A stretch of 64,000 nt of DNA from a virus. Taxonomy: Duplodnaviria > Heunggongvirae > Uroviricota > Caudoviricetes. Under the pieces are notes generated by a model. That model was not told where the DNA came from and searched no databases. It was given only the letters and a program-made list of their open reading frames with translations. The DNA lies in the IMG/VR virus record IMGVR_UViG_2843020057_000001, positions 10,516 through 74,515 of that record; one strand, written 5' to 3'. Shown here one piece after another: positions 13,867-36,142 of this stretch (its first letter is position 1; every line of letters begins with the position of its first letter). The translations under genes were made by a program, and so were the position numbers.

Positions 13867-14151
13867 ATGATCGGTGGTGACAGCATGGACAAAGATAAAG
13901 AGCTTGAACTACTAATGGATATTCAAGAAAAAGTCGGTCGAATTGACGAGAGACTTAAAAAAGTTGAAGATACAGATCGCAAAGCGGAAGAGGCGATTCG
14001 TTTAAGTGAAAAGAATGAAGAAAAAATTATTGAGCTTTCCGCAGCAGTTGAAGAACTTAAGGAAGGTCGAAAGTGGACCCAAAGAACTGCCATTGGTGCC
14101 ATTATCAGTGCCGCAATTGCAGTTTTATCTTGGATTCACCCGCCATTCTAA
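13867..14151 (+). CDS. XhlA/BhlA-like holin-accessory protein
   Basis: Coiled coil followed by KWTQRT and a C-terminal transmembrane helix (AIGAIISAAIAVLSWI). Confidence 0.6.
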   Translation: MIGGDSMDKDKELELLMDIQEKVGRIDERLKKVEDTDRKAEEAIRLSEKNEEKIIELSAAVEELKEGRKWTQRTAIGAIISAAIAVLSWIHPPF

Positions 14152-14164
14152 AGGAGTAAATAAA

Positions 14165-14434
14165 ATGAAAAAAGTATTGAATTTAATTAAAAATAAGGTA
14201 GTTAAGCCAGATGGAACACTTAATGGGAAGATCATTAGTGGTTTAGTAGCACTAATCATTGTATTTGTACAACAAATCTTTGCCTGCTTTGGAGTTCAAC
14301 CAAAAGGTGATGTGACTGCTTTTGTTGGACTTGCTAATACAGCGTTGACTATTCTCGGATTAGTTGGAGTATTGAGTGATCCAACGCCTGTAGAAGTTCT
14401 TGTTAAAGCGGAAAATAAAGTGTCTGAAAAATAA
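14165..14434 (+). CDS. Phage holin (phiLC3-like, two TM segments)
   Basis: ATG 14165 after AAAGGAG; KIISGLVALIIVFVQQI...ILGLVGVLSDPT matches the family pattern. Confidence 0.75.
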   Translation: MKKVLNLIKNKVVKPDGTLNGKIISGLVALIIVFVQQIFACFGVQPKGDVTAFVGLANTALTILGLVGVLSDPTPVEVLVKAENKVSEK

Positions 14435-14437
14435 TTC

Positions 14438-14486
14438 CGAGAATTTTTCGACATTTAATGACAGCGCTTACGGGATATGATATAAT
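14438..14486 (+). promoter_or_regulatory. Promoter with a degenerate copy of the 27-bp phage motif
   Basis: ATGACA-N17-TATAAT with extended TG; 14438-14464 matches the 38766 motif at 18/27 in the same register. Confidence 0.55.
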
Positions 14487-14524
14487 ACAAAATTGTGGTA
14501 CGAACGGGAAACGGAGAGTACACA

Positions 14525-15127
14525 TTGGTACAATTTAATAGTTTTTATAATGATCCAAATAATCGACAAATTCTTGAGGTTATTAATACACCTACGGGTG
14601 CTGTTACAATCTTTGAACCGTCAAAAGACGATGTTAATAAGATAATGCAACTCAAAGAAATGGTAGATGCATTTAATCAAGAAAATGTCGATGAAAATTT
14701 ACTAGATATTAATGGGACTACAATCCTAAAAGAATTGATCCCTCTTCTTACAGATTTGGAAATTGATCCAGACATGACTGATGAAGAAATGGCTCAAATT
14801 ATTGAAAATCCTACGGTGGAATTAAGTTTAATTACATCAGTTCTTTCAAGTGTAGTAACAAATATCTATACGTTAATGATTATGAACTTTAAGAATAATC
14901 TAGAATTACGTAATATGGTAGATCAAACTGAAGAGATTTCTGATAGTGCTTTAGCTATGTTTATTTCTAAACAGTCTAAGACTGACGAAGGACGTAAACA
15001 AATCGAAGAGATCAATAAGCAATCAGATAAGATCGTTAAGATGGAAACGGCTATTAAACAAGCTGAAGAAAAAACAAACGCAAAACCAGAGGAAGAGTCG
15101 CAAACTTCCGAAAAACAAGCTGGTTAA
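14525..15127 (+). CDS. Hypothetical tail-region protein (YomO-like position)
   Basis: TTG 14525 after GGAGAG, in frame with ORF 14495..15127. Confidence 0.55.
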   Translation: MVQFNSFYNDPNNRQILEVINTPTGAVTIFEPSKDDVNKIMQLKEMVDAFNQENVDENLLDINGTTILKELIPLLTDLEIDPDMTDEEMAQIIENPTVELSLITSVLSSVVTNIYTLMIMNFKNNLELRNMVDQTEEISDSALAMFISKQSKTDEGRKQIEEINKQSDKIVKMETAIKQAEEKTNAKPEEESQTSEKQAG

Positions 15128-15148
15128 TAAGAAATAAAATGGTACATA

Positions 15149-15209
15149 AAAATAGCGCAAGTAATGAAATGGACAGGAGATAGTCCATCTTTTTGCTTAC
15201 GCTATTTTT
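15149..15209 (+). terminator. Long hairpin, probable terminator
   Basis: AAAATAGCG...ATGGAC/GTCCAT...CGCTATTTTT nested stem. Confidence 0.5.
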
Positions 15210-15233
15210 GATTTTAAACAAGGAGGTTATTTT

Positions 15234-15758
15234 ATGTCTAGTTTTGTTATTGAAGGTACTTTAACCGTAGACATAAGTGGCCTAGAAGGATTGGCAGGAG
15301 AAATTCGCTCTGTAAGTATTAAGGCGCTTCAGGGTGAAATAAGAAAAGTAGCAGATCAAATATTAAGAGAATTAGTTGAGAAAGATTGGCCGGCAGGTCG
15401 GGCTTCTCCAGGATACGTTTCAACTGGTGAGTTAGTAGATGCCATCAATGTAACGGGTGGTGGGACTAGTTTATCTATTGAAATGGATGGTTCTCGTATG
15501 AGTATGAGTCCTCTAAGCACAGGAAATAGTGCAAACGGAGACTGGGGTGGAATTGAAAGCTGGGGAATCCATATGGGTGTACAGTCTCAGCCATTTAATG
15601 ACGAGATGCCAGCATATCTTAACTATGGTGGTGGCGGACTTGTTCCACATCAAGGTACTCACTATTTTGATAATGCCTTTTCTAAATATGTAGAAATAAT
15701 TCCTAAACTCCTTGCTGATGCTCTTCGTGCTGCTGGGTTTGAAGTATCTGGCGCATAA
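15234..15758 (+). CDS. Hypothetical tail-region protein (YomN-like position)
   Basis: AAGGAGG RBS; 174-aa ORF directly before the recombinase. Confidence 0.6.
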   Translation: MSSFVIEGTLTVDISGLEGLAGEIRSVSIKALQGEIRKVADQILRELVEKDWPAGRASPGYVSTGELVDAINVTGGGTSLSIEMDGSRMSMSPLSTGNSANGDWGGIESWGIHMGVQSQPFNDEMPAYLNYGGGGLVPHQGTHYFDNAFSKYVEIIPKLLADALRAAGFEVSGA

Positions 15759-15770
15759 GAGGGGATATAT

Positions 15771-16799
15771 TTGAAACGAAAAGAAGGATTAACGTATCAA
15801 ACAAAAAGCGATAGAAAAATCGTAAGATACGCAACGAAAGCAAGAATGGCAAAAGTAAATCCTAAAAACATTAAGATTTACGAGCGCTATCTTAAGAGTC
15901 GAATCATTCACAATTCTGACGTTAAAGATACTACATATAAGGTTTATCACTCTTATATGAATATCTTCATGTGTTATATTGCAGAAGAATGGGACAATTT
16001 TTATCTTTTGGATGAAGATATGTTAGAAGATGAAATGATCGATGTAATGGAAGGCTATATGGCTTTCCTTGCCGATGAATGTGGTAATGGTAAAAAAGTC
16101 ATTAACACTAAATTAAGTGCTGTATCCAGTTTCTACCTATGGGCAACTAAGCGAGGAATGATTCGAAGTCATCCTTTTGATGGAAAATTAGACCGTATTA
16201 AGAATGCTCAAGATGAAAAGAAGATTTCAGTTCACTTTTTACACGAAGACAAGATTAATCAAATCTATAAAACTCTTGAAGAAGAAGCGGAACCTGAGGG
16301 AGCAAGATATGATTATCAAGATAGATTGATTTGGGAGATTGCTTTTTATAGTGCTTGTCGTATCGGGGCATTATATAACTTAAGTTTGTCTAATCTGAAA
16401 CTTGATGAAAATAAATTCGTTGATATCAGAGAAAAGCGCGGAAAGCGAGTGGAAGTTCCATTCACAAATGAAACCAAGGAATTAATTAAGAAGTTCCTTA
16501 AGTGGCGTGAAGATAATGGAATTGATACAGATGCGTTCTTTGTTAATCGTTTAGGTGGTCATATGAGTAAACAGGCCATGTCAATCCGTATTCGCAAAAT
16601 AGGAGAAATTGTTGGTGTCGGTGATTTCAGAGCTCACAGTATTCGTAAGAGTCGATTAAACCAAGTTGGACAAAAAAATATTGAATTAGCCAAGCAATTA
16701 GCACACCACGAATCAATGGATACAACAGCACGCTTCTATATGGAAAAGAAGAGTGAAACAGCAACATTGAAAGAAATCGATGCATTGCTTTCAGAATAA
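15771..16799 (+). CDS. Tyrosine recombinase (XerC/D-like; SPbeta YomM-like position before the tape measure)
   Basis: Catalytic set visible: R (SACRIGAL), K (EKRGK), HxxR (AHSIRKS), H (LAHHES), Y (ARFYM); has an N-terminal domain. Confidence 0.9.
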   Translation: MKRKEGLTYQTKSDRKIVRYATKARMAKVNPKNIKIYERYLKSRIIHNSDVKDTTYKVYHSYMNIFMCYIAEEWDNFYLLDEDMLEDEMIDVMEGYMAFLADECGNGKKVINTKLSAVSSFYLWATKRGMIRSHPFDGKLDRIKNAQDEKKISVHFLHEDKINQIYKTLEEEAEPEGARYDYQDRLIWEIAFYSACRIGALYNLSLSNLKLDENKFVDIREKRGKRVEVPFTNETKELIKKFLKWREDNGIDTDAFFVNRLGGHMSKQAMSIRIRKIGEIVGVGDFRAHSIRKSRLNQVGQKNIELAKQLAHHESMDTTARFYMEKKSETATLKEIDALLSE

Positions 16800-16898: not shown

Positions 16899-19800
16899 TT
16901 GGCAAGTAAAGAGCTGTCAATAAAAGTTAAAGTTAACCTCCCAACAGCAGGGGAAATTGAAAATCAAATTCAACGTTCTCTTCGTGGGTTAAAGGATATT
17001 AAGGTTGACGCAAATGTAAAATTAAAAGTTGGCAAACTTGGCAATCTCAAACGCCAACTAAGAAATGCTCTTGGTAAAGAAAACTTTAGAGTAAACGCAA
17101 ATGTTAAAGTACATGGAATGTCCGAATTAAATCGGGTGTCCAGTAAATTAAAAGAAATTAGACGTTTAGCAAATGAACCAATTAAGTTAAACGTTGATAT
17201 GGGTGGACATAACTTTGATAAGTCCATCGAAGAGGCACGGCGAAAAGCTAATAAAGAGTTAGAGAATATTAGTCCTCATTCTTCAAGTGCAATGCTTACT
17301 GCTCAAAAAGAAATGCGAGCGCAACAACGTGCAATTGAAAAAGCACAGAAAGAATACTTAAGAGCCCAAAATCAAGCAGTAAAAGCTAGTGACGAGCGTA
17401 TTAAACAGAATATGCAACATTATGCTAGTCAGGTTGCCAAACAACAGGAAGAGGCAGAAAGACAGTACGCTACAGCTGCTAGAAGAGCTGGATTAAGTGA
17501 TTCAGAAATAAGCAAGAACGTTCTTGGCTTTAGAGAACAACCTAAAGCTAGAATGACTCTCAAGAACACTGAAATTGAACAACAGTTAAAAAGAGACGCA
17601 GAAGCGTTTAGGAGATACAAAAGTGCATTAAATGACGTCACTAAAGCGCAAATGACCCTAGCCAAAGGTGGTTTAGGCGACAATGTATTTGCCGAAGTTC
17701 AGAGACAAGCTGGGGCGGCAGAAAAGAAGGTGCGATCTCTTGAAAGTGCTATAAGGAAAACAAGGTATGCATCTCAAGCATCAGATCTAAGAGAAGCTTC
17801 TGACGCAAGAATTAGAATGACGCGAGCTCAGGCCGCAGATCGAGCAGATGCAAAAGCACGCCGAGGAAAAAAGTCCTTTACGGGTATGGTGAATACCTTA
17901 AACACTTGGGACGTATTACAAAATGGTGTATATGGAGCTGCTGCTGTTGTAAATGGCTTAAATGAAGTTGATAAGGCCATTACAAAAGTTACAAAAGTTG
18001 TTCCCGACAGTCAAGCAGCGGTAAATAGATGGAAGAAGAATATCTATAAGGATGCTTCAGAAGTTGGTAAGACTGCTCCAGAATTTGCTGCTGCTGTAGA
18101 ACAATGGGCAACAGCCGGATATAATCTTAAACAATCAAATCGTCTTGCAAAGGCGTCAGTTATGGGTTCTTTCGTTGGTGAAGTGCCTGTAGAAGACATG
18201 GTTAGGTATATGTCTGTGCCAATGAAAGCTTTCCGAAAAGAAGGTATTAAGTCCAAAGATATTATTAACGCAATGAACCAAGTTTCTAACAAACATGCCA
18301 TTGAAATGAATGACTTGGGGGCTGCATATCAGAAAGCTAGTTCAACAGTTGGTGCTACTGGAACTAAGTTCTCACAACTAACAGGTATTATTACAGCTGC
18401 TCAAGAAGGTACTCGTGCGGGTGGAGATATGATTGGAACCGCATATAAGACGATTGGTTCACGTCTTGCTAAGATGGGTGCTGGATTAACAAAGCAGGAT
18501 CAAACCCGTGCAGCGTTCTTTAAGAAGTTGGGTGTTGATTTAACTGACAGCAATGGAAAGTTGAAATCTACTTGGCAAATTATGGATCAGTTAGGTAAGC
18601 AATGGGATAAGTTAGATAGTAAAGACAAAAACACCGCTGCCCAATATGCCGCTGGAGCGAACCATGCTAACATTTTCCAAGCTACGATGGATAATTGGAA
18701 AACCGCACGTAAAGCCATGAAAGAAGCACAAGCTCAGGTTGATTTAAAAGATAAAGATCATGGTTCTGCATATCAAGAATTCGAGAAGCAGAAACAATCA
18801 ATCGAATTCCAACTAGCTTCATTAAAGAATACATGGATGTCCTTCTTAAATAACATCTCTGGTGGTAGAGAAGGAATTTCCCAAATTCTTCAAAGTCTTA
18901 ATGGCATCGGATCTATCGCAGATAAACTTGCTTCAAATAAGCTATTCTCGCAAGCTATTAGATGGGGTGCAATCACTGCTGGTATAGTTATGGCACGTAA
19001 TGCAATAACGGGAATGGTTAAAAGCTTTGCAAGTATTGGAAATGCTGGAAAAGGAATCGAGAGTCTTAAATCTAGATTCACCAATGTTGGAAGTTCTGTT
19101 TCTGAATTAAGGACAAAAATTCGTGAATTAAGAGCAGAATTAGATGGCTTAAACGCCAAAGGTTTTAAGTCAAAAACAAAGCTAGATAGAAATGCAGAAG
19201 GAAGAACCAAGGGAGAGTATACAGGTAAAGACGTAGGTTTAATTAAATACTCTATTCCAGAGAATGATGTCCTCCAAACTAGACGTGGAGCCCGAAGACA
19301 ATATGGTCTATCTAAGAAGCATCCAACTCATTTTGCTCCAAAGGAACTTGCAAAAGAAAATGAAGATTTAGCAAAATCATATTCAAATGTTACTCCTGCA
19401 ATTAGTAGAGCAGAACAAAAACTAAAAGACACCAATGGGACTCTTTCTAAAGGAACTAAAGCAACTGCTAAATTAGGAAAAGTCATGGGTGTTGCTGGTA
19501 GTGTACTGGGAGTAATTGGTAGTGGACTTGGTGTCGTTGGCTTAGGTATTGATGCGATTACTATTGCGTCAGGAGCCTTAGAAATGATGGGTGTTCATCC
19601 ATGGGAGCTTATCCGAAAGGCAATTAAGCCGGCCCAGGCTAATGCCGAAGCATTTAGTAAATCTATGCAGAAAATTCATTCTGATATTGGAAATGTTAAT
19701 TCTGGCTTAAAGGACAATGTACTATTTAATGGCACTGCTGAAAAGTCAAAAAAGAGTCTTTCTGGATTAGACAAAGTCTTAAAAGGCGTTACAGACGGTT

Positions 19801-22800
19801 CTAATCAATTGAGCAAAGGTGACTGGAAAAACTTTAAGGATAGCTTTAATGCAATTTCAAAGGCTAATGGGCTTGGAATTAGAGCATATTCGAATAATGT
19901 TGAAGTATTAAAAGGTCAAATGACAGATCTTAAGAATGCTATTCACGATGTTAACTTGGAACAACTAAAGTCTGGTTCAAGAGAATTAGATAAGCTTGAT
20001 AAGACTGGTAAAAAAATTAATAGTCAAAAGACATTAAATGACTTGCTTAAGACTAATAATGATTATCTTAAAAAAGCTAAAGAATTAGAACAAGAGCGTG
20101 ATAACGCTAATATTGGTGTTGCAAGCAAAGCTCAAGGTGAGAAGAACGAGAAGAACTACCAGCGCAAGTTAGCAGCTTTACGTGGCTCTGCAATTCGTAA
20201 AGAAATGGATTCCGCTGCGTACCAAGAGTGGGCTCAACAATATCAAGACTATGGTGACTCTGTAAGAAAACAATATGGTGAATTAGCATCGATCCTTGAT
20301 TCTGGTATATTCAAGAAGACAGACTTTAATATGATGTCTTCAAATGAATTACGGAAGATGGGAACTGCTCAAACTATGAATCTGCAAAATGCAGCTAGAG
20401 CAAATAAAATTTGGAATGATGTTAATAAGCAGTTAACTCAGAATAATAAATTAGGTAGTCAGCAAGGTAAGTTAACAAAAGAGCAACAGCAATATCTTTC
20501 TAAGAATGTTAAAGGACTTGAAGGCATTAGTCGTAACATGAGTAAGTGGACTGATGCTCAAAGAACAGCGTTCGATGAGTATGGTAAGACTGCGGCAAAG
20601 AACCTTAAGAATCAACAAAGTCGAATGATGGATATCCTTACGGCTCAAGGAATGTCGAAAAGTGCTGCTCAAAAACAAGTTAATAAACTAGACGGTACAG
20701 GTCTAGGATATATTAATGCCCTTGGGAATAACTATAATGCTCAGGCGTTATTAAATGTTGACCCTGATTATGCAGCATTATATGGAACAAAATGGTATCC
20801 ACAACTACAGCATCAGCAAAGACAGATTCAAAATTATCAAGGTAGAAAAGGTAATAGGAATAACGAGACAATTGATGCGTTCCTTGATCCTCAAACTGGT
20901 GTTATGAACACAGGCATGATAGCGAGAAGCCAAGCAGTTATGACCTATGATTCTAAGACTAAGAGAAAATTCCAAAAAATGAATTTCATTGATGGAAATG
21001 GCAATATAAAGTTCGCACAAGTTGCAGATGCCTTTTCGGGGGTTAAAGGGCGAGATAATCCGCAAGAATTAATTAGCGAGTTGGCGGATGGCTCAATAAA
21101 TAAATTCAGTAAGCTTCATATTTCTGCAAATCAAAGTCACGGGAAATTAAGCAAAGATGTCAAAAGTGATATTCGGAACTTGGTGAATAAAAAAGGAGCA
21201 CGGGCCGCCGAAGAGTATATTAAGAAGCTACAAAATTCAGGTGCTCTTGGAAAAGATGCAATGGATTATTATGATTCACTTGATCGAAAGGGCAATGAAA
21301 CTAAGCGAACGCCTAAGAGTCAGCGTAGTCAAAGAAAGCCATCAGGTTCTAGAAAGTCTTCAGGTTCGTCTAAAAAGAATTGGTACGACAAAGATGATGA
21401 TGACCCAATGGCGAAGCCATTATGGAAACGTAATGATACTAAACCATCATCAAGTCGTCATCGTGGTACATCGAAGCCTGATACTAAAAATCAACCAAGA
21501 ACTTCTAAAAATCAGCAAAAAGCATTAGAGAAAGCAGCACAAGGTAAGCAACAGACCAAGAGCCCTAATTTAATACCTAATTTGCTTAAAAAATTAGGAT
21601 TTATTACAGATGCGAAGGCCGATAGAAAACCAAAAACAGCTAAGGATGTCGAAAAGAATCTTAAGGGACATAAGGTGTCAGACAAAGAGCTTAAAAATGC
21701 TCAGGCACTTCTTAAAAATAAGAAAGAGCAGAAAAAACTCGAAGATGATTTGAGAAAGAATGGGCAACTAAAGACTTCGAAACCATCTAGCTCTAATTCT
21801 AATAAAAAGAATTCATCAAAGAATAAGAAGCAAGCCGAAAAGGAAGGACGCGAAGAAGAGAAAGCCCGTCAAAAGGGTAGAGATAGTGCAAAGAAAACAT
21901 CATCCAAAAAATCTAATTCTTCCAAAAAACAGAATCAAGAACAAAAAGATCTTGCCAAACAGTTAAATAAAGGCAAAGGAGTAAAAGTAAAACTTCAACC
22001 AGATGCTAAAAGTTTAACGAAAGGGTTGAAAAATCTTGGTGGTAAAAAAGGTACCAAGATTAAGTTACAACCAGATACAAAATCTCTTACGAAAGGTCTT
22101 AAAAACTTAGGCGGCAAAAAGGGTACTAAAATAAAACTTCAAGCTGACACGAAAGGTTTAACAAAAGATCTTAAGAATCTCGGTGGTAAAAAAGGCACTA
22201 AAGTTAAGTTACAAGCAGACACCAAGGGACTTACTAAGAGTCTTAAAAATCTAGGTGGCAAGAATGGGACAAAGGTTAAGCTTCAGGCTGACACTAAGGC
22301 CCTAACAAAGAGTTTATCTAATCTTGGTAAAGGTAAAGGGGTAAAAGTAAAGCTTCAAGTCGATACTAAGGGGTTAGACAAATCGCTAAAGAGTCTCAAG
22401 GGGCTTAAGAAATCTCAGAACATTAAGATTAATGTTTCTGGTAACGCTTCAAGCAAGATAAGTAAGATCAAATCTTCTCTAAATGGATTGAGTGGTAAGA
22501 GTAAGAATATCTCTATTAACGTTCGAGGCAATGCAGTTAGTCAGGTAAATAAAATAAAGTCTGCATTAAACGGGATAAAAGGTTCTAAGAATATCTCAAT
22601 CAATGCCTCTGGTAACGCAGCTTCCTTTGCTTCCAAGGTTAAATCGTCACTAGCTGGAATCCATAATAAGCATGTAAATATCACCGCCTCTGGAAATGCC
22701 CAGCAAGTAATTAATCAAGTTAAGAGTTCTTTATCTGCTCTTCATGATAAGGCTATTACTATAACAGCTAACGATAATGCTACTGGTCCAATTAATAGAG

Positions 22801-25800
22801 TTAAGTCTGCTCGAAACTCTTTGAAGGATAAAACTATTCATATTAAAGCCGATGTTGGTGCAGCAATGGCCGGCATTAGCCAAGTTAGAGGTGCTTTAGC
22901 AAGTATCTCTGATAAAACAGTCCATATTAATGTTGTAAAGAATGAAACTACGGTAAGTAGTAAGAGTAGCAAGTCCAAATCAATGGCTATTACCCCAGAA
23001 AATTCACAGCCAGTCAGTCCTATGACTTCTATGTCTGTCGTTGCAGGAAATACCGCTATGAATATGGCCGTAGATAATGGTGCTGCTAATATGGGTGTTG
23101 ATACAAATTCTGCAACTAATGGTGACAAAGTAAGTGGAATTGCCACAACGGATCGTTCTGATTCTACCCAAAAAGTTAGCGAAGATTATTGGCGTTACAT
23201 GGGGAATGAACTTTACACAGGCTTGCCACTTGATGAAAAAGTTCAAAACCTTGAAAATGCAGTAACTAAAGCTGATGAAGACATGGACAAACTTATTAAT
23301 CTTTCAAAGCAGAGAATTGACTTAGATAATAAGCAAATTGCATATCAAAGAACTATGCAGGGCGCCTACCAGCAACAAATTACTGATGTACTTAATGAAT
23401 TGCATAAGTATGGTTTCCAAACAAATGGGAATCAGATTACTAATCTAAACCATGCAAAAGATATTACGGGTGATAATGCAAGTAAAGTTGATGAATTACT
23501 TGGTAAATATCAGACGGCTTATCAAAATTTCTCAGAAGCTACTAAGAAGATTGACGAATTGCAAACTGATATTTGGCAACAAGGCAAGAATCAACAAGAC
23601 TACAACAACACCAAAGACCAAAAGATGGTTGAAAAGTTACAACGTGAGTTAGAGCTTGTGACTACTGCTATTGATAACCAAAAGAATATTCTTGAGCGTG
23701 AAGGTAATTCACTAGAAGATAGTGATTATCGCATGAAGTTAAAGAATAATTCTGATCAGATTTATGCTAAGTCCGAGGCGGTTCAACAGTTGTTAGCTGA
23801 ATTTAATCAATTGAGCGTTGCTAACTTTGTTGGTACAAAAGACGCTGACAATGCAAAGAATTTAGCTGATTCATTAAGTCAAATTCGTGATGCGATCATG
23901 GAAAACCTTGATTCTATTGATGAATTAAAGAAGAGTATTCGTGATATTCAACTTAATTCTATTATTGAAAGCCTGTCTAAGTACACCGACAATCTTAGCA
24001 ATAGTATTGATCGGCTAAAGAACAATGTAACAAATCTTCAAGATGGGTTGTTAAGTGGAACATCTTATAACGACCTTATGAGTAGTAATTTTGATGTTGT
24101 TAACCTTAATCAAAAATCTGCTTATGAGAAGAGTGTGGCCGATAAGATTTCATTAGAACGTCAATTGGATAGTGCTCTAGATCAATTCGCTAGAAAGAAC
24201 GTTGATCGAACGGCACAAGTAGCCAATAATCAACTTCAAATTGAAGCACAAAAGTATAACGATATGCTTTCGATGGCAATTAACTATGCTAGAGGTACGC
24301 GTAATGAAGTTGGAGCTATTGATGTTAAATACAATGTATCTGTTGAATCTGACAAGATTGAAGTTCCTAACCTTACTCATAACCAAGAGTATGTACAGTC
24401 CTCAATTGCTTATCAGAAAGAAATGAATGAATTAAAAGCTGAGTACAACCGTTTAATGGGCAAAGCTAATACTGCTGAACAAAAAGAAGCAATTAATTCT
24501 GAAATGATCTATAAGCAATTAGAACTCCAGGAAAAAGTTTACAAGTCCATGATTGAAGCCGATCAAAAGGCGATCAATGATTTACGTGAACAAGCTAAGA
24601 ATCCTGATATGACAACAGAACAGCTTAAAACGATAACCGACCAAATTACAGAGTATGAAAAGAATGTTATTGATGCCCAAAATAGCATTAAGGACGCAGT
24701 TAAGAATCGTTTTGAGTATGAAAAGTCTCTTATTGATAAGCAAATTGATGAGTATAAACGTGCTAGCGACACAATAAGTACTTTAGTAAGTATTGCTGAC
24801 ACCCTTCATTTAGAAGGCTCTACTCAAGCCGCTATTATAAATCAGCAATATGCTTCCACCTACCGTGAGTACAATAATTACCTTGATTTACTCCAAAGAC
24901 TTCGAAACGAATTATCTGGATACGAAAAGAATTCCTACGAATACAATCAATTGAAGGCAATGATTGATGAATATCAAACTTCGCTTGATAGCACAATGTC
25001 TTCGCTTATGGATATAAGTAAAAATGAGTTTGGCCAAACTCTTGATTCTATTCAAAAGGAATTTGAAAAGAGTGTTAACAAAGGAATGACGGCTGACCAA
25101 GCTAAGTTCGATCAAGATGTATGGTATAACCCCATGCAAAAAGAACTTCGTCTTGAAGAAATGCGGTTAAAGATTGTTGAGTTGGAAGATAAGACGGTTG
25201 AAAAACGTATTGCTGCTCTCGATGCCCAAGAGAGAATGTCTAAAGCAGAAGCGGATTACGTTGATAAACAACTTGATTTGGCACTTGCACAACAAAAACT
25301 TGATAACACCATAAATAAAAAAGACGTTCGATACCTTGAAAAAGATAAGGACGGCAAATTTAACTGGACTTACATTGCAGATCAAGCAAATGTCGAAGAG
25401 GCACAAAGAGCTGTTAACTCTGCAAAACAAGCTCTTGAAGAGTCTAAGATTTCCAATCGAAATGACTACATTCAAAAAGTCAGTGAAACTATTAATAGTA
25501 TCAAGGACGGTTCGATTAATCAGGAAGAGGCTCGGAAACGTCTCGAACAGTTAAACGATTCATATAAGTTTATTCTTAAAGATATTCCTACTTTTGATAT
25601 TGCGAAAGTTGAGGATATCATCAAAGCCTACAATGACTATGAAAATAAGAATAGCGACATAATTAATGATTACAAACGAAGCGTTAAGCCGGAGGTAACA
25701 CAAGGCTACGAAACAATCGTTAAAGGGTTTGGAGATCAGTTTAAAGCTGTATCAAAAGATCTAGGCGAAATTTTCGGAAAGCAGTTAAGAGAAGCGCTTA

Positions 25801-25970
25801 ATCTACCAAATGGTATTCGGAATTCATATGGTGATGGAAATGATAAATCGCTAGTTATAAACGGTGATCTCAAACTCGAATTACCTAATGTTAAGGACGC
25901 CAATGATTTTGCGGAAGCTCTTAAGACATTACCTCAAGTAGCAAAACAATACGCAACAAAGAAAATGTAA
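16899..25970 (+). CDS. Tape measure protein (3023 aa)
   Basis: TP901-type core (VDKAITKVTKV...EQWATAGY...AMNQVSNKHAI), hydrophobic Gly/Ala segments, long helical Q/E/K-rich C-terminus. Confidence 0.9.
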   Translation: MASKELSIKVKVNLPTAGEIENQIQRSLRGLKDIKVDANVKLKVGKLGNLKRQLRNALGKENFRVNANVKVHGMSELNRVSSKLKEIRRLANEPIKLNVDMGGHNFDKSIEEARRKANKELENISPHSSSAMLTAQKEMRAQQRAIEKAQKEYLRAQNQAVKASDERIKQNMQHYASQVAKQQEEAERQYATAARRAGLSDSEISKNVLGFREQPKARMTLKNTEIEQQLKRDAEAFRRYKSALNDVTKAQMTLAKGGLGDNVFAEVQRQAGAAEKKVRSLESAIRKTRYASQASDLREASDARIRMTRAQAADRADAKARRGKKSFTGMVNTLNTWDVLQNGVYGAAAVVNGLNEVDKAITKVTKVVPDSQAAVNRWKKNIYKDASEVGKTAPEFAAAVEQWATAGYNLKQSNRLAKASVMGSFVGEVPVEDMVRYMSVPMKAFRKEGIKSKDIINAMNQVSNKHAIEMNDLGAAYQKASSTVGATGTKFSQLTGIITAAQEGTRAGGDMIGTAYKTIGSRLAKMGAGLTKQDQTRAAFFKKLGVDLTDSNGKLKSTWQIMDQLGKQWDKLDSKDKNTAAQYAAGANHANIFQATMDNWKTARKAMKEAQAQVDLKDKDHGSAYQEFEKQKQSIEFQLASLKNTWMSFLNNISGGREGISQILQSLNGIGSIADKLASNKLFSQAIRWGAITAGIVMARNAITGMVKSFASIGNAGKGIESLKSRFTNVGSSVSELRTKIRELRAELDGLNAKGFKSKTKLDRNAEGRTKGEYTGKDVGLIKYSIPENDVLQTRRGARRQYGLSKKHPTHFAPKELAKENEDLAKSYSNVTPAISRAEQKLKDTNGTLSKGTKATAKLGKVMGVAGSVLGVIGSGLGVVGLGIDAITIASGALEMMGVHPWELIRKAIKPAQANAEAFSKSMQKIHSDIGNVNSGLKDNVLFNGTAEKSKKSLSGLDKVLKGVTDGSNQLSKGDWKNFKDSFNAISKANGLGIRAYSNNVEVLKGQMTDLKNAIHDVNLEQLKSGSRELDKLDKTGKKINSQKTLNDLLKTNNDYLKKAKELEQERDNANIGVASKAQGEKNEKNYQRKLAALRGSAIRKEMDSAAYQEWAQQYQDYGDSVRKQYGELASILDSGIFKKTDFNMMSSNELRKMGTAQTMNLQNAARANKIWNDVNKQLTQNNKLGSQQGKLTKEQQQYLSKNVKGLEGISRNMSKWTDAQRTAFDEYGKTAAKNLKNQQSRMMDILTAQGMSKSAAQKQVNKLDGTGLGYINALGNNYNAQALLNVDPDYAALYGTKWYPQLQHQQRQIQNYQGRKGNRNNETIDAFLDPQTGVMNTGMIARSQAVMTYDSKTKRKFQKMNFIDGNGNIKFAQVADAFSGVKGRDNPQELISELADGSINKFSKLHISANQSHGKLSKDVKSDIRNLVNKKGARAAEEYIKKLQNSGALGKDAMDYYDSLDRKGNETKRTPKSQRSQRKPSGSRKSSGSSKKNWYDKDDDDPMAKPLWKRNDTKPSSSRHRGTSKPDTKNQPRTSKNQQKALEKAAQGKQQTKSPNLIPNLLKKLGFITDAKADRKPKTAKDVEKNLKGHKVSDKELKNAQALLKNKKEQKKLEDDLRKNGQLKTSKPSSSNSNKKNSSKNKKQAEKEGREEEKARQKGRDSAKKTSSKKSNSSKKQNQEQKDLAKQLNKGKGVKVKLQPDAKSLTKGLKNLGGKKGTKIKLQPDTKSLTKGLKNLGGKKGTKIKLQADTKGLTKDLKNLGGKKGTKVKLQADTKGLTKSLKNLGGKNGTKVKLQADTKALTKSLSNLGKGKGVKVKLQVDTKGLDKSLKSLKGLKKSQNIKINVSGNASSKISKIKSSLNGLSGKSKNISINVRGNAVSQVNKIKSALNGIKGSKNISINASGNAASFASKVKSSLAGIHNKHVNITASGNAQQVINQVKSSLSALHDKAITITANDNATGPINRVKSARNSLKDKTIHIKADVGAAMAGISQVRGALASISDKTVHINVVKNETTVSSKSSKSKSMAITPENSQPVSPMTSMSVVAGNTAMNMAVDNGAANMGVDTNSATNGDKVSGIATTDRSDSTQKVSEDYWRYMGNELYTGLPLDEKVQNLENAVTKADEDMDKLINLSKQRIDLDNKQIAYQRTMQGAYQQQITDVLNELHKYGFQTNGNQITNLNHAKDITGDNASKVDELLGKYQTAYQNFSEATKKIDELQTDIWQQGKNQQDYNNTKDQKMVEKLQRELELVTTAIDNQKNILEREGNSLEDSDYRMKLKNNSDQIYAKSEAVQQLLAEFNQLSVANFVGTKDADNAKNLADSLSQIRDAIMENLDSIDELKKSIRDIQLNSIIESLSKYTDNLSNSIDRLKNNVTNLQDGLLSGTSYNDLMSSNFDVVNLNQKSAYEKSVADKISLERQLDSALDQFARKNVDRTAQVANNQLQIEAQKYNDMLSMAINYARGTRNEVGAIDVKYNVSVESDKIEVPNLTHNQEYVQSSIAYQKEMNELKAEYNRLMGKANTAEQKEAINSEMIYKQLELQEKVYKSMIEADQKAINDLREQAKNPDMTTEQLKTITDQITEYEKNVIDAQNSIKDAVKNRFEYEKSLIDKQIDEYKRASDTISTLVSIADTLHLEGSTQAAIINQQYASTYREYNNYLDLLQRLRNELSGYEKNSYEYNQLKAMIDEYQTSLDSTMSSLMDISKNEFGQTLDSIQKEFEKSVNKGMTADQAKFDQDVWYNPMQKELRLEEMRLKIVELEDKTVEKRIAALDAQERMSKAEADYVDKQLDLALAQQKLDNTINKKDVRYLEKDKDGKFNWTYIADQANVEEAQRAVNSAKQALEESKISNRNDYIQKVSETINSIKDGSINQEEARKRLEQLNDSYKFILKDIPTFDIAKVEDIIKAYNDYENKNSDIINDYKRSVKPEVTQGYETIVKGFGDQFKAVSKDLGEIFGKQLREALNLPNGIRNSYGDGNDKSLVINGDLKLELPNVKDANDFAEALKTLPQVAKQYATKKM
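21975..22405 (+). repeat. About six tandem 69-bp (23-aa) repeats inside the tape measure gene
   Basis: Unit KG(T/V)K(I/V)KLQ(A/P)DTKxLTKxLKNLGGK; DNA copies differ at synonymous sites; bounds approximate. Confidence 0.85.
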
Positions 25971-28331: not shown

Positions 28332-29372
28332 TTGATTATAGGTGTCGATTATTTTAACTATGGATTTGACCAACAATTTTATGACACCCCTATTCCAACC
28401 TCTGAGATTGACGAGGTTATGATGGGGGCTGGAATGTATGATGAAATGTTTATTAGTGTGGATACAACTTTAGATGATTCACAAACCAAACCAGCTCAAT
28501 GGAATCTGAAAACTATTATGGACGCTAAGTTTAATAATTCTCTTGAAGCTGGGAGTATTGACGGAGCTGGTCATATTGTCACCAAAATACAATGTTATCG
28601 TCGAGAATACATGAGCACGAATACAGATTGGCAATTAGTAGCGCAATTTGATTATGATGACCATTATAACCTTTATACGGTAGTTGATAGATTCATTGAA
28701 AATGGCAAAACATATGAATATGCAGTTGTTCCATTAGCCAATGAAATTCAAGGTGACTTACAAGTTGGCCCACCAATTGATAGCAAGTTTTATGGCTCCT
28801 TTATTTCTAATCTAGGTTCGAATTATTCAATGAACATCGACTTCAAGTTCTCGGATTTAGTTTGGAATTCTAACACGAGTACCAGTGTGCCGCTTAATGG
28901 TCAATATCCAATAGTGACGTTTGGAAATGCAAACTATCGAACTGGTACAGTTTCGTTCTTACCACTTACTCCGCAACAAGAATTTGGTTATGAAAACGAA
29001 ATTGATCCACACGCCGAATACATTAATAGAACTAATGTTATTGACTTCCTTAATGATGGACAAACAAAGGTAATTCGTCGTGAAGATGGAGATATTATTG
29101 TTTGTGCAACACATAATATTAAAACTACTCCGAAAGATGAAAGTCTTGAAGCTATTTCTACGGTAACATTTGATTTCACTGAAATAGGTAAATTAGATTA
29201 CAACACCATGGAAAAAGCGGGATTAATTGCTGATGCAGGTAAATCTGTCTACACATACGATGAAGATGGGAATATTAAGTGGAATCAGGAATATATTGCT
29301 GAAGATGGTTCTATTCAATCTAGAACTAGATATAGAAATTCATTCTTGTATGAACGAGATAATTTGAAGTAA
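28332..29372 (+). CDS. Putative distal tail (Dit-like) protein
   Basis: GAGGTGAGG RBS; position before the hub; YPIVTFGNANYRTGTVSF pattern. Confidence 0.5.
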   Translation: MIIGVDYFNYGFDQQFYDTPIPTSEIDEVMMGAGMYDEMFISVDTTLDDSQTKPAQWNLKTIMDAKFNNSLEAGSIDGAGHIVTKIQCYRREYMSTNTDWQLVAQFDYDDHYNLYTVVDRFIENGKTYEYAVVPLANEIQGDLQVGPPIDSKFYGSFISNLGSNYSMNIDFKFSDLVWNSNTSTSVPLNGQYPIVTFGNANYRTGTVSFLPLTPQQEFGYENEIDPHAEYINRTNVIDFLNDGQTKVIRREDGDIIVCATHNIKTTPKDESLEAISTVTFDFTEIGKLDYNTMEKAGLIADAGKSVYTYDEDGNIKWNQEYIAEDGSIQSRTRYRNSFLYERDNLK

Positions 29373-29384
29373 GAGGGATAAAGT

Positions 29385-31481
29385 ATGCCACTGAAATACA
29401 AAAAGCCCAATTACAATGAAACGTTATCGAATATTGTAAATGGGCTTGAAGAAAAAGTAAGTGGTCGAGCAGCAAGTGTTTTACGACAACCAATTCGCAA
29501 CCTTCAAACAACTATTCAAGTGTTGGATAATGATGGCTCCATAATTGATACTATTACTGGAAAAACAACTGGTGGAACTATTAATTATGATGCAACCTCA
29601 TTGATACGACGAACGGGAACTTTGAAGATGGTTGTTGATCCTTCATATATGCCAAATAACAAAAGTGTTTTTTGGTTCGATAAGAAGTTTAGAGTCTATC
29701 AAGGAGTTGTTGATTTATCTCGTTTCCCCAGGGAGGCAGTTAACTTTTTACTAGGAACGTTTTGGGTTAACGAATCCTCTCTACGTTTTGATAAAACAAC
29801 ACGTGAAATATCAGTTACGTTAGCTGACAAAATGACCTTATGGGACGGCCAAGGGCTAGAAAATAAACTCAAAATAAAGCGTGGAACACCTATGAGTGAT
29901 GCTATTAGAGGAATCATGGAATTAGTGGGAGAAACAGATTTTGGGTATATGTACACCAGTAATGGTGAAGAAATCCTTCAGTACGATTACGAAAAGGAAC
30001 CGGGAACTTCAATCAATGATATCATTGAAGACTTTCGTGATATGTACATGGATTTTATCTGTGGCTATAATTCTCTTGGTCAATTTGAATATCGTAAGTT
30101 GCCCATTCAAAAGGAAGAAGAAATTCCTAAGCCTAAATGGGAATTTGATGCAACTTCACAAGATAGAGCAGATCTCACCTTATCATTTCAAGAAAGTTAC
30201 GACTTAAAGAACGTTAAGAACAGATTTGTTGTTATTGGGTCCACATCAACCAAAACAGGCTATACACCTAAAGGTTCAGTAAAAATTACTGATACAAATA
30301 GCGAGTTTAATATAGATGCTATCGGAACTAGAACAAAAGTTATTCAAAATAGTGATCTTACCAATGATTTACAGTGTGTGTCTCAAGCACGCTATGAAAT
30401 GTGGAAGGCGGCACATTTTCAAGAAAAAGTAAGTATTGATGTTGCTCCAGTTTACTTCTTACAACCTAATGATGTTATTCTGGTCACCAATCCTGTAACA
30501 AAAAAAGTATATCAATATATGATTGATACTATCCAAATTGACTTAGATGTCGATGGGATCATGTCAATTGATGCTCATAAAATGTACTTTGTTAAGCCAG
30601 ATTATGGTGAGGCAGATATGCCAATTGTTGCAGCTATCAAGAATGGTATCAATAAATTAGGATGGCTGTCACTTCCCGAAGAAAGAATTAAAGATGCATA
30701 TGGTATTTCCGCCGATGGAAAGAATTACTTGAGTATCCGATTTGTTGTTGACGAAGAAGGTGGTTGGCAAGCAGAGACAACCGCATATAACACTTCCAGA
30801 AATCAAACACTAGAAATCGACCTTCGAGATTTTGAAAAGCTTAATCTTAAGGATGAAAATGGTGACGTTGGTAGATCTAAAGGTGATTATGCAGATCGTG
30901 TACTCGGACATGAAATGTTTCATGCAGTTTGTAATGATTTCTATGGTGCTGTTAAGACGATGGATATGCCTGTGTGGTTCAAAGAAGGATTTGCAGAATT
31001 ACTTCATGGTGGAAAAGATCGTTATGTAACGATAACGGGATTTGAAAGCAAGGAAGCTAAGAAGCAAGCATTAATTAAGCGAGCTAGAAACCAGCTAAAC
31101 GGAACATGGGAGAGTACATCAGATGACTATGTAGCTGCGTATCTTATTGCTTGTGCTATGTATTATTTGGCTGGAGACTTAAAAGGTATTCATGACATGT
31201 TTCAGCGACTAGAAAAAGAAAGTAACTTAAATTTGAACTTTCTATACAAAGCATTACCTATTACTGAATCGGCAGGTCAAATCTTCGATAAGGTAATTGA
31301 TGAAATGCAAAAGATGCCAATTTGGGATTTCTTAAATGATCCTACAGATGTAGACACATGTTCTATTGGTGGAAATCATATGCTTAATCTATATGACAGA
31401 CCACTTAGTCCAGAAGATGTGTTTAACAATCAGACGGCAACAACTGATTCATTAGGATTTAAAATTAAGTTCGACGAGTAG
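29385..31481 (+). CDS. Tail hub (Tal/DUF5048-like) protein with a C-terminal HExxH gluzincin metalloprotease domain
   Basis: N-terminal hub pattern (GGTINYDATSLIRRTG, TLADKM, VKNRFVVIG); HEMFH at 30909-30923; WFKEG Glu at 30984. Confidence 0.75.
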   Translation: MPLKYKKPNYNETLSNIVNGLEEKVSGRAASVLRQPIRNLQTTIQVLDNDGSIIDTITGKTTGGTINYDATSLIRRTGTLKMVVDPSYMPNNKSVFWFDKKFRVYQGVVDLSRFPREAVNFLLGTFWVNESSLRFDKTTREISVTLADKMTLWDGQGLENKLKIKRGTPMSDAIRGIMELVGETDFGYMYTSNGEEILQYDYEKEPGTSINDIIEDFRDMYMDFICGYNSLGQFEYRKLPIQKEEEIPKPKWEFDATSQDRADLTLSFQESYDLKNVKNRFVVIGSTSTKTGYTPKGSVKITDTNSEFNIDAIGTRTKVIQNSDLTNDLQCVSQARYEMWKAAHFQEKVSIDVAPVYFLQPNDVILVTNPVTKKVYQYMIDTIQIDLDVDGIMSIDAHKMYFVKPDYGEADMPIVAAIKNGINKLGWLSLPEERIKDAYGISADGKNYLSIRFVVDEEGGWQAETTAYNTSRNQTLEIDLRDFEKLNLKDENGDVGRSKGDYADRVLGHEMFHAVCNDFYGAVKTMDMPVWFKEGFAELLHGGKDRYVTITGFESKEAKKQALIKRARNQLNGTWESTSDDYVAAYLIACAMYYLAGDLKGIHDMFQRLEKESNLNLNFLYKALPITESAGQIFDKVIDEMQKMPIWDFLNDPTDVDTCSIGGNHMLNLYDRPLSPEDVFNNQTATTDSLGFKIKFDE

Positions 31482-34840: not shown

Positions 34841-36142
34841 TTGTTCAAGAAGTTTCTAAAGAGGATGTTAATGGTAGCAGCAACTATCATTATGGTTGCC
34901 CCTGTATTATCAGGGGTCGCAAGTGCAGATGGTCGATCGTATGGGCCTGATCTCTCAAAATATCAAGGTGCATATACAAATAAGCCATATGCACGTGATC
35001 AATTCGCAATTTCACAAGTTGGTGGATACGCAAATGGTTATTTCTATGACCAATGGACATATCCAACACAAATTAGTTCAGGTATTGCTAATGGTTTGAG
35101 AATGCACACTTATATTTGGTATCAAGTTGGTGGAAATGCTCAATTGGGGAAGCAGGTTGTAGATCATTTTCTACCAAAGATCCAAGCGCCTAAGGGGTCG
35201 ATCATTGCATTAGATTATGAAGACGGAGCATCTTGGGACAAGAACGCAAATACGGAAGCCATTTTAGCAGGTATGCGTGAAATTAAGGCGGCAGGATACG
35301 TTCCAATGTATTACAGTTATAAGCCGTACACCTTGGCTCACGTTGACTATAATCGTATTATTGCTGAATTCCCTAACTCTGGATGGATTGCAGCATACCC
35401 AGATTACAATGTTCGTACAGAACCATACTGGGGTGTATTCCCTTCACTTCCAGGAATTAGTATCTACCAATTTACTAGCACGTATCGTGCTGGCGGTTTA
35501 GACGGTAATATTTCATTAGCACCTAATGGTCGTGACATTACTATGAGCGGTTACACTAATGGAAATTCACAGAAACCAAAGACCGAAACTCCTGCAACGG
35601 AACAAGGTAAGCAAATTCATAAGGATACTCATAACTACACCGTAAAGCCAAATGATAGCTGGTGGGCAATAGCAAATCGTTATGGCATGGAAATGAACGC
35701 TTTAGCACAACTGAATGGTAAGACCATCAATGATGTAATTCACCCAGGTCAAGTTATTCGTGTTGCTGATAAAGGAGATGGTCAATCAGTTTCAAACAAG
35801 GTTAACACCACCCCCGCACAACCAAAGCCAGCTCAACCTAGTGCACAATATTACACAGTACGCTACGGCGATTCATTCTGGTCCATTGCAAACAAATATG
35901 GAATGAATATGTACACACTTGCTGCTAATAATGGATTAAGCATTAACTCAGTTATTTACCCTGGGCAACGCTTAAAGGTGAGTGGTAACGCACAAGCAAC
36001 TCAAAAGGTTCACTATGTTAAATATGGTGAAACGCTAAGCGGAATTGCTGCACAGCTCGGAACTACTGTATCTCATTTACAAGCAGTAAACGGAATTCGA
36101 AACGCTAACTATATCTGGGTCGGCCAAAGAATCGCTGCATAA
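34841..36142 (+). CDS. Endolysin: signal peptide + GH25 muramidase + 3 LysM
   Basis: AAAGGAG RBS; Sec signal ending VASA|D; DLSKYQG and ALDYEDG GH25 motifs; three LysM repeats. Confidence 0.92.
   Translation: MFKKFLKRMLMVAATIIMVAPVLSGVASADGRSYGPDLSKYQGAYTNKPYARDQFAISQVGGYANGYFYDQWTYPTQISSGIANGLRMHTYIWYQVGGNAQLGKQVVDHFLPKIQAPKGSIIALDYEDGASWDKNANTEAILAGMREIKAAGYVPMYYSYKPYTLAHVDYNRIIAEFPNSGWIAAYPDYNVRTEPYWGVFPSLPGISIYQFTSTYRAGGLDGNISLAPNGRDITMSGYTNGNSQKPKTETPATEQGKQIHKDTHNYTVKPNDSWWAIANRYGMEMNALAQLNGKTINDVIHPGQVIRVADKGDGQSVSNKVNTTPAQPKPAQPSAQYYTVRYGDSFWSIANKYGMNMYTLAANNGLSINSVIYPGQRLKVSGNAQATQKVHYVKYGETLSGIAAQLGTTVSHLQAVNGIRNANYIWVGQRIAA

Follow-up and report, generated by a model that had tools for sequence, protein, structure and literature searches.

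The stretch of DNA analysed here, hereafter the window, comprises 64,000 nucleotides of a tailed-phage record (IMG/VR IMGVR_UViG_2843020057_000001) and corresponds to positions 10516-74515 of a 138.5-kb contig (138,515 bp; guanine plus cytosine (GC) content 35.8%). It contains a single open reading frame (ORF) at 29385-31481 on the plus strand, encoding a 698-amino acid (aa) protein in the position of the tail-associated lysin (Tal), in which a tail hub is fused to a protease; the two parts were recognised by the profiles PHROG 1887 and NF033876, respectively. A Shine-Dalgarno sequence, AGAGGG (29372-29377, same strand), can be read directly 7 nt ahead of the ATG. It overlaps by one base the stop codon of the upstream gene (29370-29372), from which the hub ATG is separated by 12 bases.

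The protein divides into two domains, both encoded on the plus strand. Residues 1-411 (29385-30617) form a hub domain with the fold of gp27, Mu gp44 and VgrG, as found with AlphaFold, Foldseek and Pfam, and contain DUF5048. They end in a short flexible linker (aa 405-411; 30597-30617), where the predicted local distance difference test score (pLDDT) of the hub model falls below 50. Residues 412-698 (30618-31481) form a metalloprotease domain of the flagellinolysin family, an M9-like gluzincin identified by profile, structural model and substitution rates. Its motif HEMFH (aa 509-513; 30909-30923 on the plus strand, codons CAT GAA ATG TTT CAT) provides the predicted zinc ligands H509 and H513 and the predicted general base E510. 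The downstream motif EGFA (30984-30995, plus strand) contains E534, the predicted third zinc ligand, and A537, the putative hydrophobic 'basement' residue. The E534 codon, GAA (30984-30986), lies inside WFKEGFAELLHGGKDR, 21 residues past H513, and DYVAAYL comes next. D482 (30828-30830, plus strand) is a candidate Ca2+-site aspartate on grounds of spacing and alignment.

Comparison with NCBIfam detected the profile NF033876, 'flagellinolysin', both in the whole protein (aa 417-694; E 4e-36; profile positions 44-316 of 384) and in the C-terminal 287 aa taken alone (E 7.5e-37; profile positions 48-317), with a score of 125 bits that falls below the 205-bit cut-off for naming a member of the family. 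Pfam gave weak matches to Peptidase_M9 and Peptidase_MA_2 only. Alignment with flagellinolysins so named by NCBI (from Tepidibacter, Clostridium sp. TW13 and C. oryzae) revealed conservation across the whole domain, including HEMxH and EGxAE; this conservation and the profile E-value rule out a chance occurrence of HExxH.

The AlphaFold model of the domain, built from 41 sequences, had a pLDDT of 94.8 and a predicted template modelling score of 0.93. Its nearest structure was the peptidase domain of the clostridial collagenase ColH (4ar1; VIA Z 12.4, 220 residues aligned, root-mean-square deviation 3.6; Foldseek prob 0.97), followed by ColG (Z 11.5), ColT (Z 11.2), lugdulysin (M30) and M1 aminopeptidases. 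These M9-type matches identify a thermolysin-like gluzincin peptidase fold, and clostridial collagenases have likewise been reported as the closest fold for flagellinolysin (PMC5595980). The phage domain is only ~13% identical to ColH, ColG and ColT over the ~220 residues aligned, and differs from these collagenases in having neither activator nor collagen-binding domains. Membership of the M9 collagenases was ruled out at the sequence level, since Peptidase M9 (PF01752) scored 12.7-14.5 bits (E 0.02-0.08) against a gathering cut-off of 26; the fold alone is held in common. PDB sequence searches with the domain and its profile returned nothing useful, and it appears that no flagellinolysin structure has been solved so far.

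When 1.84 billion representative proteins were scanned in full with HMMER, 210 matches were returned. The 11 at E<1e-30 were proteins of the ~700-aa tail type or fragments of them. The other matches listed were mostly proteins of 500-1100 aa with Flagellin_N and/or Flagellin_C ends, and a few were giant RTX/Big-repeat or collagen/lectin proteins. Seven proteins bearing a flagellinolysin-type domain illustrate the latter range: RTX/Big-repeat giants of 2775-3546 aa, an S-layer/Shr-like protein, and a protein combining collagen repeats with a legume lectin. The presence of the domain in such proteins shows that it has been grafted onto several surface-display scaffolds beyond flagellin. Taken together, profile, fold, residue conservation and the domain tree described below assign the C-terminal 287 aa to the gluzincins of the flagellinolysin family.

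Conservation of the active site was assessed on 134 distinct tail-type domains, collected from protein matches and IMG/VR loci. H509, E510, H513 and E534 were invariant in 134/134, as were D482, Y582 and several Gly and Asp positions; N517 was kept in 133 and A537 in 121. Aligned with the EG(T/A)AE motif of named flagellinolysins, the domain presents HExxH, a distal Glu and an Ala 'basement'. In FliA(H), Glu262 is the third zinc ligand and Ala265 the basement (PMC5595980). The corresponding Glu of Clostridium sp. TW13 is found 25 residues past the second His, as Glu262 is after His237 in FliA(H). Since a loop of the tail protein is 4 residues shorter, which brings the spacing to 21, E534 and A537 can be equated with the ligand and the basement alanine of that study. 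D482 precedes the first His by 27 residues, the same spacing as between Asp206 and His233 in FliA(H) (PMC5595980), and D482 and N517, both conserved, are candidate Ca-site residues by spacing.

The ratio of nonsynonymous to synonymous substitution rates (dN/dS) in unsaturated pairs was 0.02-0.04 for the protease domain and 0.02-0.03 for the hub. For the closest pair, which has only nine substitutions per domain, it was about 0.11 in both domains. As judged from these substitution patterns, the protease domain is a maintained enzyme under strong purifying selection and not a relic. Phage tail proteins often re-use enzyme folds for binding, and the domain could in principle be an ex-protease, catalytically dead and serving solely to bind a receptor. 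Invariance of the four catalytic and zinc residues, of D482 and Y582, and of N517 in all but one of the 134 domains would be unexpected for a pseudo-enzyme, and we regard such a binding module as extremely improbable.

The N-terminal domain matched PHROG 1887, 'tail protein', over aa 23-398 (E 1e-44) and Pfam DUF5048 over aa 306-400 (E 1.2e-10). Its AlphaFold model, from a 46-sequence alignment (pLDDT 81.9), matched the Mu baseplate hub gp44 (9ki1_G; Foldseek E 1.6e-17, prob 1.00). At E<=0.001, Foldseek gave 76 matches in all, among which were T4 gp27, VgrG spikes and the siphophage Tal proteins of 80alpha, NF5 and lactococcal p2; the model displays the four-domain fold of gp27 and Mu gp44. 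The position of the gene is likewise that expected of a hub, the tape measure and distal-tail genes preceding it in the tail module. On its predicted structure, the N-terminal 411 aa are a baseplate hub of the gp27/Mu gp44 type in Tal position.

These results bear out the original prediction, which had read the locus as a tail-hub protein carrying a flagellinolysin-like zinc metalloprotease. HEMFH, the Glu 21 residues on and the DYVAAYL that follows were all verified in the sequence at the coordinates it had given. The patterns it had given for the flagellinolysin domain (GWL..E..I..YG, L.IDL.DF, DR..HE..HA and P.WF.EG.AE..G..R) were seen column by column against the NCBI-named flagellinolysins. 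Family identity is fully supported by NF033876, the fold, the conserved residues and the tree; the structure comparison that it proposed for aa ~412-698 recovered the gluzincin fold, with ColH on top; and the hub assignment agrees with the matches to gp27 and Mu gp44.

The surroundings of the gene place it in the tail-tip module of a large element. Gene order in the window is tape measure, three small tail ORFs, hub, fibre-like proteins and endolysin. The tape measure protein (16899-25970, plus strand) has 3023 aa and was identified by PHROG 4211/28, with PhageMin_Tail as its only Pfam match. The endolysin at the end of the tail/lysis module (34841-36142, plus strand) combines a GH25 domain with LysM repeats (PHROG 291, E 2e-111; Pfam Glyco_hydro_25 and three LysM). 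No further enzyme domain was detected by Pfam in the tail-tip genes, and neither Pfam nor PDB sequence search detected a lytic domain in the tape measure, a result that marks a detection limit and not a proof of absence. A Limosilactobacillus reuteri record of 128.8 kb, filed as a plasmid, contains a 92%-identical stretch. The tail-tube protein has distant kin in Clostridium phage c-st, C. difficile phiCD211-like phages, Brevibacillus phage Sundance and Geobacillus virus E3, all of which are large Firmicutes phages. The plasmid-filed relative, the neighbourhood of tail genes and the kinship of the tail tube together identify the element as a large, siphophage-like phage-plasmid of Limosilactobacillus and the locus as its tail-tip module.

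Several other features of the element were recorded. It forms a contig of its own, with a GC content 3 points under that of the chromosome (35.8 vs 39.0%); the same assembly comprises a 1.94-Mb chromosome contig (GC 39.0%) and a 9-kb contig. At the usual ~0.15 nm per residue, a tape measure of 3023 aa would predict a tail of ~450 nm. A tyrosine-recombinase gene (15771-16799; integrase family, PHROG 1, E 1e-29) lies directly upstream of the tape measure gene, inside the structural module. This is an odd site for an integrase, and the enzyme may instead serve plasmid multimer resolution. A holin-like gene (14006-14434; PHROG 13404, E 6e-22) lies ~20 kb upstream of the endolysin gene, with the whole tail module between the two.

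What would a protease do at the tip of a tail? By analogy with characterised relatives, we lean towards a tip-borne protease that cuts wall-associated or surface proteins of the host during entry. The hub trimer at the distal tail tip would have three copies of the protease hanging from it. On contact with the cell, these would cut protein and not glycan, the likeliest targets being host proteins, wall-associated or anchored to the surface, that either mask the receptor or constitute it. Once the target was cut, the tip could get to the membrane and set off ejection of the DNA. The reaction would proceed by the gluzincin scheme, with Zn2+ held by H509, H513 and E534, E510 acting as general base, and Ca2+ stabilising the cleft. 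The enzyme would be expected to prefer a large hydrophobic P1' residue, as do the two flagellinolysins studied, which are Zn- and Ca-dependent broad endopeptidases acting on proteins (PMC5595980, PMC7643111). A protein substrate is favoured because characterised flagellinolysins cut proteins and because VgrG2b, a bacterial protein of similar design discussed below, spares peptidoglycan.

Two points weigh against host-protein cleavage during entry. To our knowledge, Tal C-terminal enzymes described so far act on peptidoglycan or teichoic acid, so that a wall polymer would be the expected substrate on position alone. Moreover, no surface protein is obviously common to the hosts (Limosilactobacillus, Ligilactobacillus, Liquorilactobacillus, Enterococcus, Vagococcus, Dolosigranulum and Bacillus).

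The most direct alternative is a peptidoglycan endopeptidase, that is, a classical tail-associated lysin that would cut stem peptides or cross-bridges and so open the wall locally. The domain does occupy the site at which Tal proteins bear wall hydrolases, and searches of the tape measure and the remaining tail genes brought up no further lytic domain. The peptidoglycan metallopeptidases known to us are of the M23, M15 and LAS types, not M9-like gluzincins. Moreover, the active-site motifs are identical across hosts of differing peptidoglycan chemotype (lactobacilli, Bacillus), and characterised flagellinolysins cut L-peptide bonds in proteins (PMC5595980, PMC7643111). We consider this alternative unlikely, while giving it some weight. 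Tal proteins of Gram-positive siphophages (Tuc2009/TP901-1, with an M23 peptidase, 80alpha and NF5) resemble the hub-protease: they too have a gp27-like hub that is encoded after the tape measure and is extended at its C-terminus by an enzyme. The protein studied here differs from these classic Tal proteins in that its extension is an M9-like gluzincin of a protein-cutting family instead of a peptidoglycan or teichoic-acid hydrolase, and in that no fibre or coiled-coil separates hub from enzyme.

A closer parallel in architecture is VgrG2b of the Pseudomonas aeruginosa type VI secretion system, which likewise joins a gp27-type hub to a C-terminal thermolysin-like zinc metallopeptidase; we know of no other hub-gluzincin fusion. 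The metallopeptidase of VgrG2b does not hydrolyse peptidoglycan (PMC6899460). It belongs to the DUF4157 family, and VgrG2b further possesses a gp5/DUF2345 spike, a TTR linker and an immunity gene, and operates in a Gram-negative secretion system, not a virion. Neither DUF4157 nor DUF2345 gave a Pfam match in the hub-protease protein, and the interval between the end of the hub model (~aa 400) and the start of the protease (aa 412) is too short for a beta-helical spike. Could the phage protease nevertheless be an effector of the VgrG2b kind, carried through the wall to cleave membrane or wall-synthesis proteins at the membrane face? The architecture is in principle the same (PMC6899460), and VgrG structures were among the fold matches of the hub. 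The absence of any sequence relation to the VgrG2b domain, of a gp5-like spike and of an evident adjacent immunity-like gene leads us to regard a delivered effector as very unlikely.

Among the hub orthologs recovered from IMG/VR, with identities reaching down to 34% and contigs of 100-145 kb, none lacked the fused protease domain. The fusion was also present in 'plasmids' of L. mucosae, Ligilactobacillus salivarius, Vagococcus fluvialis, Bacillus velezensis and B. wiedmannii, and its carriers are 100-145 kb phage-plasmids of Lactobacillales and Bacillus. Its occurrence in all IMG/VR orthologs and in plasmid relatives indicates that the fusion is old and stable within the phage family. In species-representative genomes it is rare, being found in 1 of the 300 other Lactobacillaceae searched. 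Gene order was kept in B. velezensis pBvelV314_2, the Bacillus record examined: tape measure, small proteins, hub, fibre-like proteins, endolysin. In this record, a Pycsar anti-phage system (cyclase and effector; positions 13940-15273 of locus L002) stands right after the lysis genes, where the L. reuteri element has other cargo. The order from tape measure to hub is common also to Geobacillus virus E3 and Thomasclavelia phage TR-TP1, whose hub orthologs (22-26% identity; 396 and 386 aa), two genes past the tape measure, have no extension. The survey of hub orthologs proposed in the original prediction thus found the protease in all those down to 34% identity, and only the very distant E3 and TR-TP1 hubs were without it.

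The naked hubs of E3 and TR-TP1 bear on whether the protease might act on the virion itself. Tape measures and Tal proteins of several siphophages undergo proteolysis, and a protease tethered next to the tube exit could process the 3023-aa tape measure as it leaves via the hub, or the hub itself, during assembly or ejection. The domain lies outside the hub, the C-terminus of the tape measure remains inside the tube until ejection, and these distant relatives do without the domain despite their long tape measures. Processing of virion proteins is, in our view, quite improbable.

The habitats of the carriers bear on another alternative, an enzyme that would clear non-host material (mucus glycoproteins, biofilm matrix proteins) and leave the host surface alone. 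Many carriers come from gut or mucosal habitats, and flagellinolysins break down extracellular matrix proteins (PMC5595980). The carriers also include Bacillus from soil and the rhizosphere and Vagococcus from sponges, and three enzyme copies per virion would be few for bulk clearing, making matrix digestion an unlikely role. Cleavage of host surface proteins during entry remains the function that we favour.

The original prediction had further supposed such an entry device to be undescribed in this phage group. In a phage collection of 50,697 records, which may leave out the genome of the window or a very near relative, the domain had no tblastn match and there was no megablast match. The structure database BFVD yielded weak partial matches only (best E 2.8e-3, TM 0.31), and a literature search found no description of a hub-protease fusion. 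The supposition is consistent with these negatives, with the qualification that the gene itself is in public records under other names.

One of these names is 'DUF5048 domain-containing protein'; the other is 'flagellin'. The RefSeq/PGAP annotation applies the latter to the hub gene in plasmid records of L. reuteri, Ligilactobacillus salivarius, Liquorilactobacillus mali and hordei, Enterococcus mundtii and Vagococcus fluvialis (e.g., NZ_CP102426.1, 82342-83202). Homology to the metallopeptidase of the flagellin hypervariable region is real: the nearest non-phage kin of the domain are flagellins that NCBI names flagellinolysin. The polymerising D0/D1 ends of flagellin are missing, as neither Flagellin_N nor Flagellin_C was detected by Pfam or by purpose-built hidden Markov models. 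In the host genome (99.99% complete), no Flagellin_N gene was found, with control genomes positive. Absence of Flagellin_N and Flagellin_C, the hub N-terminus and the flagellin-free host genome rule out a true flagellin. Given the missing flagellin ends, the score of 125 against 205 bits and the hub N-terminus, the protein is a member of the protease-domain family and neither a flagellinolysin nor a flagellin. We conclude that 'flagellin' as a name for the tail hub gene is a systematic misannotation. A genome paper on V. fluvialis counts 'an additional flagellin' (PMC9413892), which may be the hub-protease gene.

To place the phage domain among its relatives, we computed a quick IQ-TREE phylogeny of 112 domain sequences, unrooted, the M9 outgroups being ~13% identical. 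All tail-type domains fell on one branch (support 98 in the Shimodaira-Hasegawa-like approximate likelihood ratio test). This branch lay within a well-supported group (95-99) whose other members were flagellinolysins, among them the three from Clostridia that NCBI names as such. A root at any point of the large flagellin part of the tree would mean that a phage had acquired the domain from a flagellin of Firmicutes; the tail stem is a possible alternative position of the root. The study of FliA(H) calls the source of the flagellin-inserted protease undetermined and does not mention phages (PMC5595980). MAFFT aligned the final beta-strand of the phage protein (31464-31478; aa 694-698 region, SLGFKIKFDE) with the flagellin segment 'QIGAN' that follows the protease in flagellinolysins, and G691 and F692 are invariant in the 41-sequence tail-type alignment. 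This likeness may be a vestige of flagellin origin or an accident of alignment.

Compared with FliA(H) of Clostridium haemolyticum and HgrFlaMP of Hylemonella gracilis, the phage domain is homologous over ~270 residues, with 30-40% identity to Clostridia members. It has in common with flagellinolysins the HEMxH...EGxAE zinc site, the candidate Ca-site Asp and Asn, and a C-terminal motif of the DTGSIGG type. Flagellinolysin and phage protease would be alike in being displayed on an extracellular polymeric organelle. They differ in that the phage enzyme is a C-terminal appendage of a tail hub, without D0/D1 ends, whereas flagellinolysin is an insert in the hypervariable region, and in that the phage particle would bear 3 copies against thousands per flagellar filament.

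Tal proteins with an enzymatic C-terminus, the flagellinolysin protease family and its fold were already known; new is their combination in a tail hub. The virion-borne enzymes known to us at phage tail tips attack sugars or peptidoglycan, and a conserved, selected gluzincin at this place points to a different route through the Gram-positive surface. The flagellinolysin protease also has a second natural scaffold beside flagellin, which bears on the origin of proteolytic flagella, stated as unresolved (PMC5595980). At least five genera, some of them known as non-motile, have plasmid records in which the gene is labelled 'flagellin', and any tally of motility or flagellin genes into which it has entered is wrong. 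Because the phage-plasmid family spans commensal and probiotic lactobacilli as well as Bacillus, its determinants of host range are of practical interest in these bacteria. A bolder proposal, possible but rather doubtful at present, is that the protease is needed for infection, a host surface protein that acts as shield or receptor having to be cut before ejection, and that large Firmicutes phage-plasmids are one vehicle moving the protease module between tails and flagellar filaments. If this is true, a tail protease essential for infection would be the equivalent, for proteins, of the 'depolymerases' with which other phages attack glycans.

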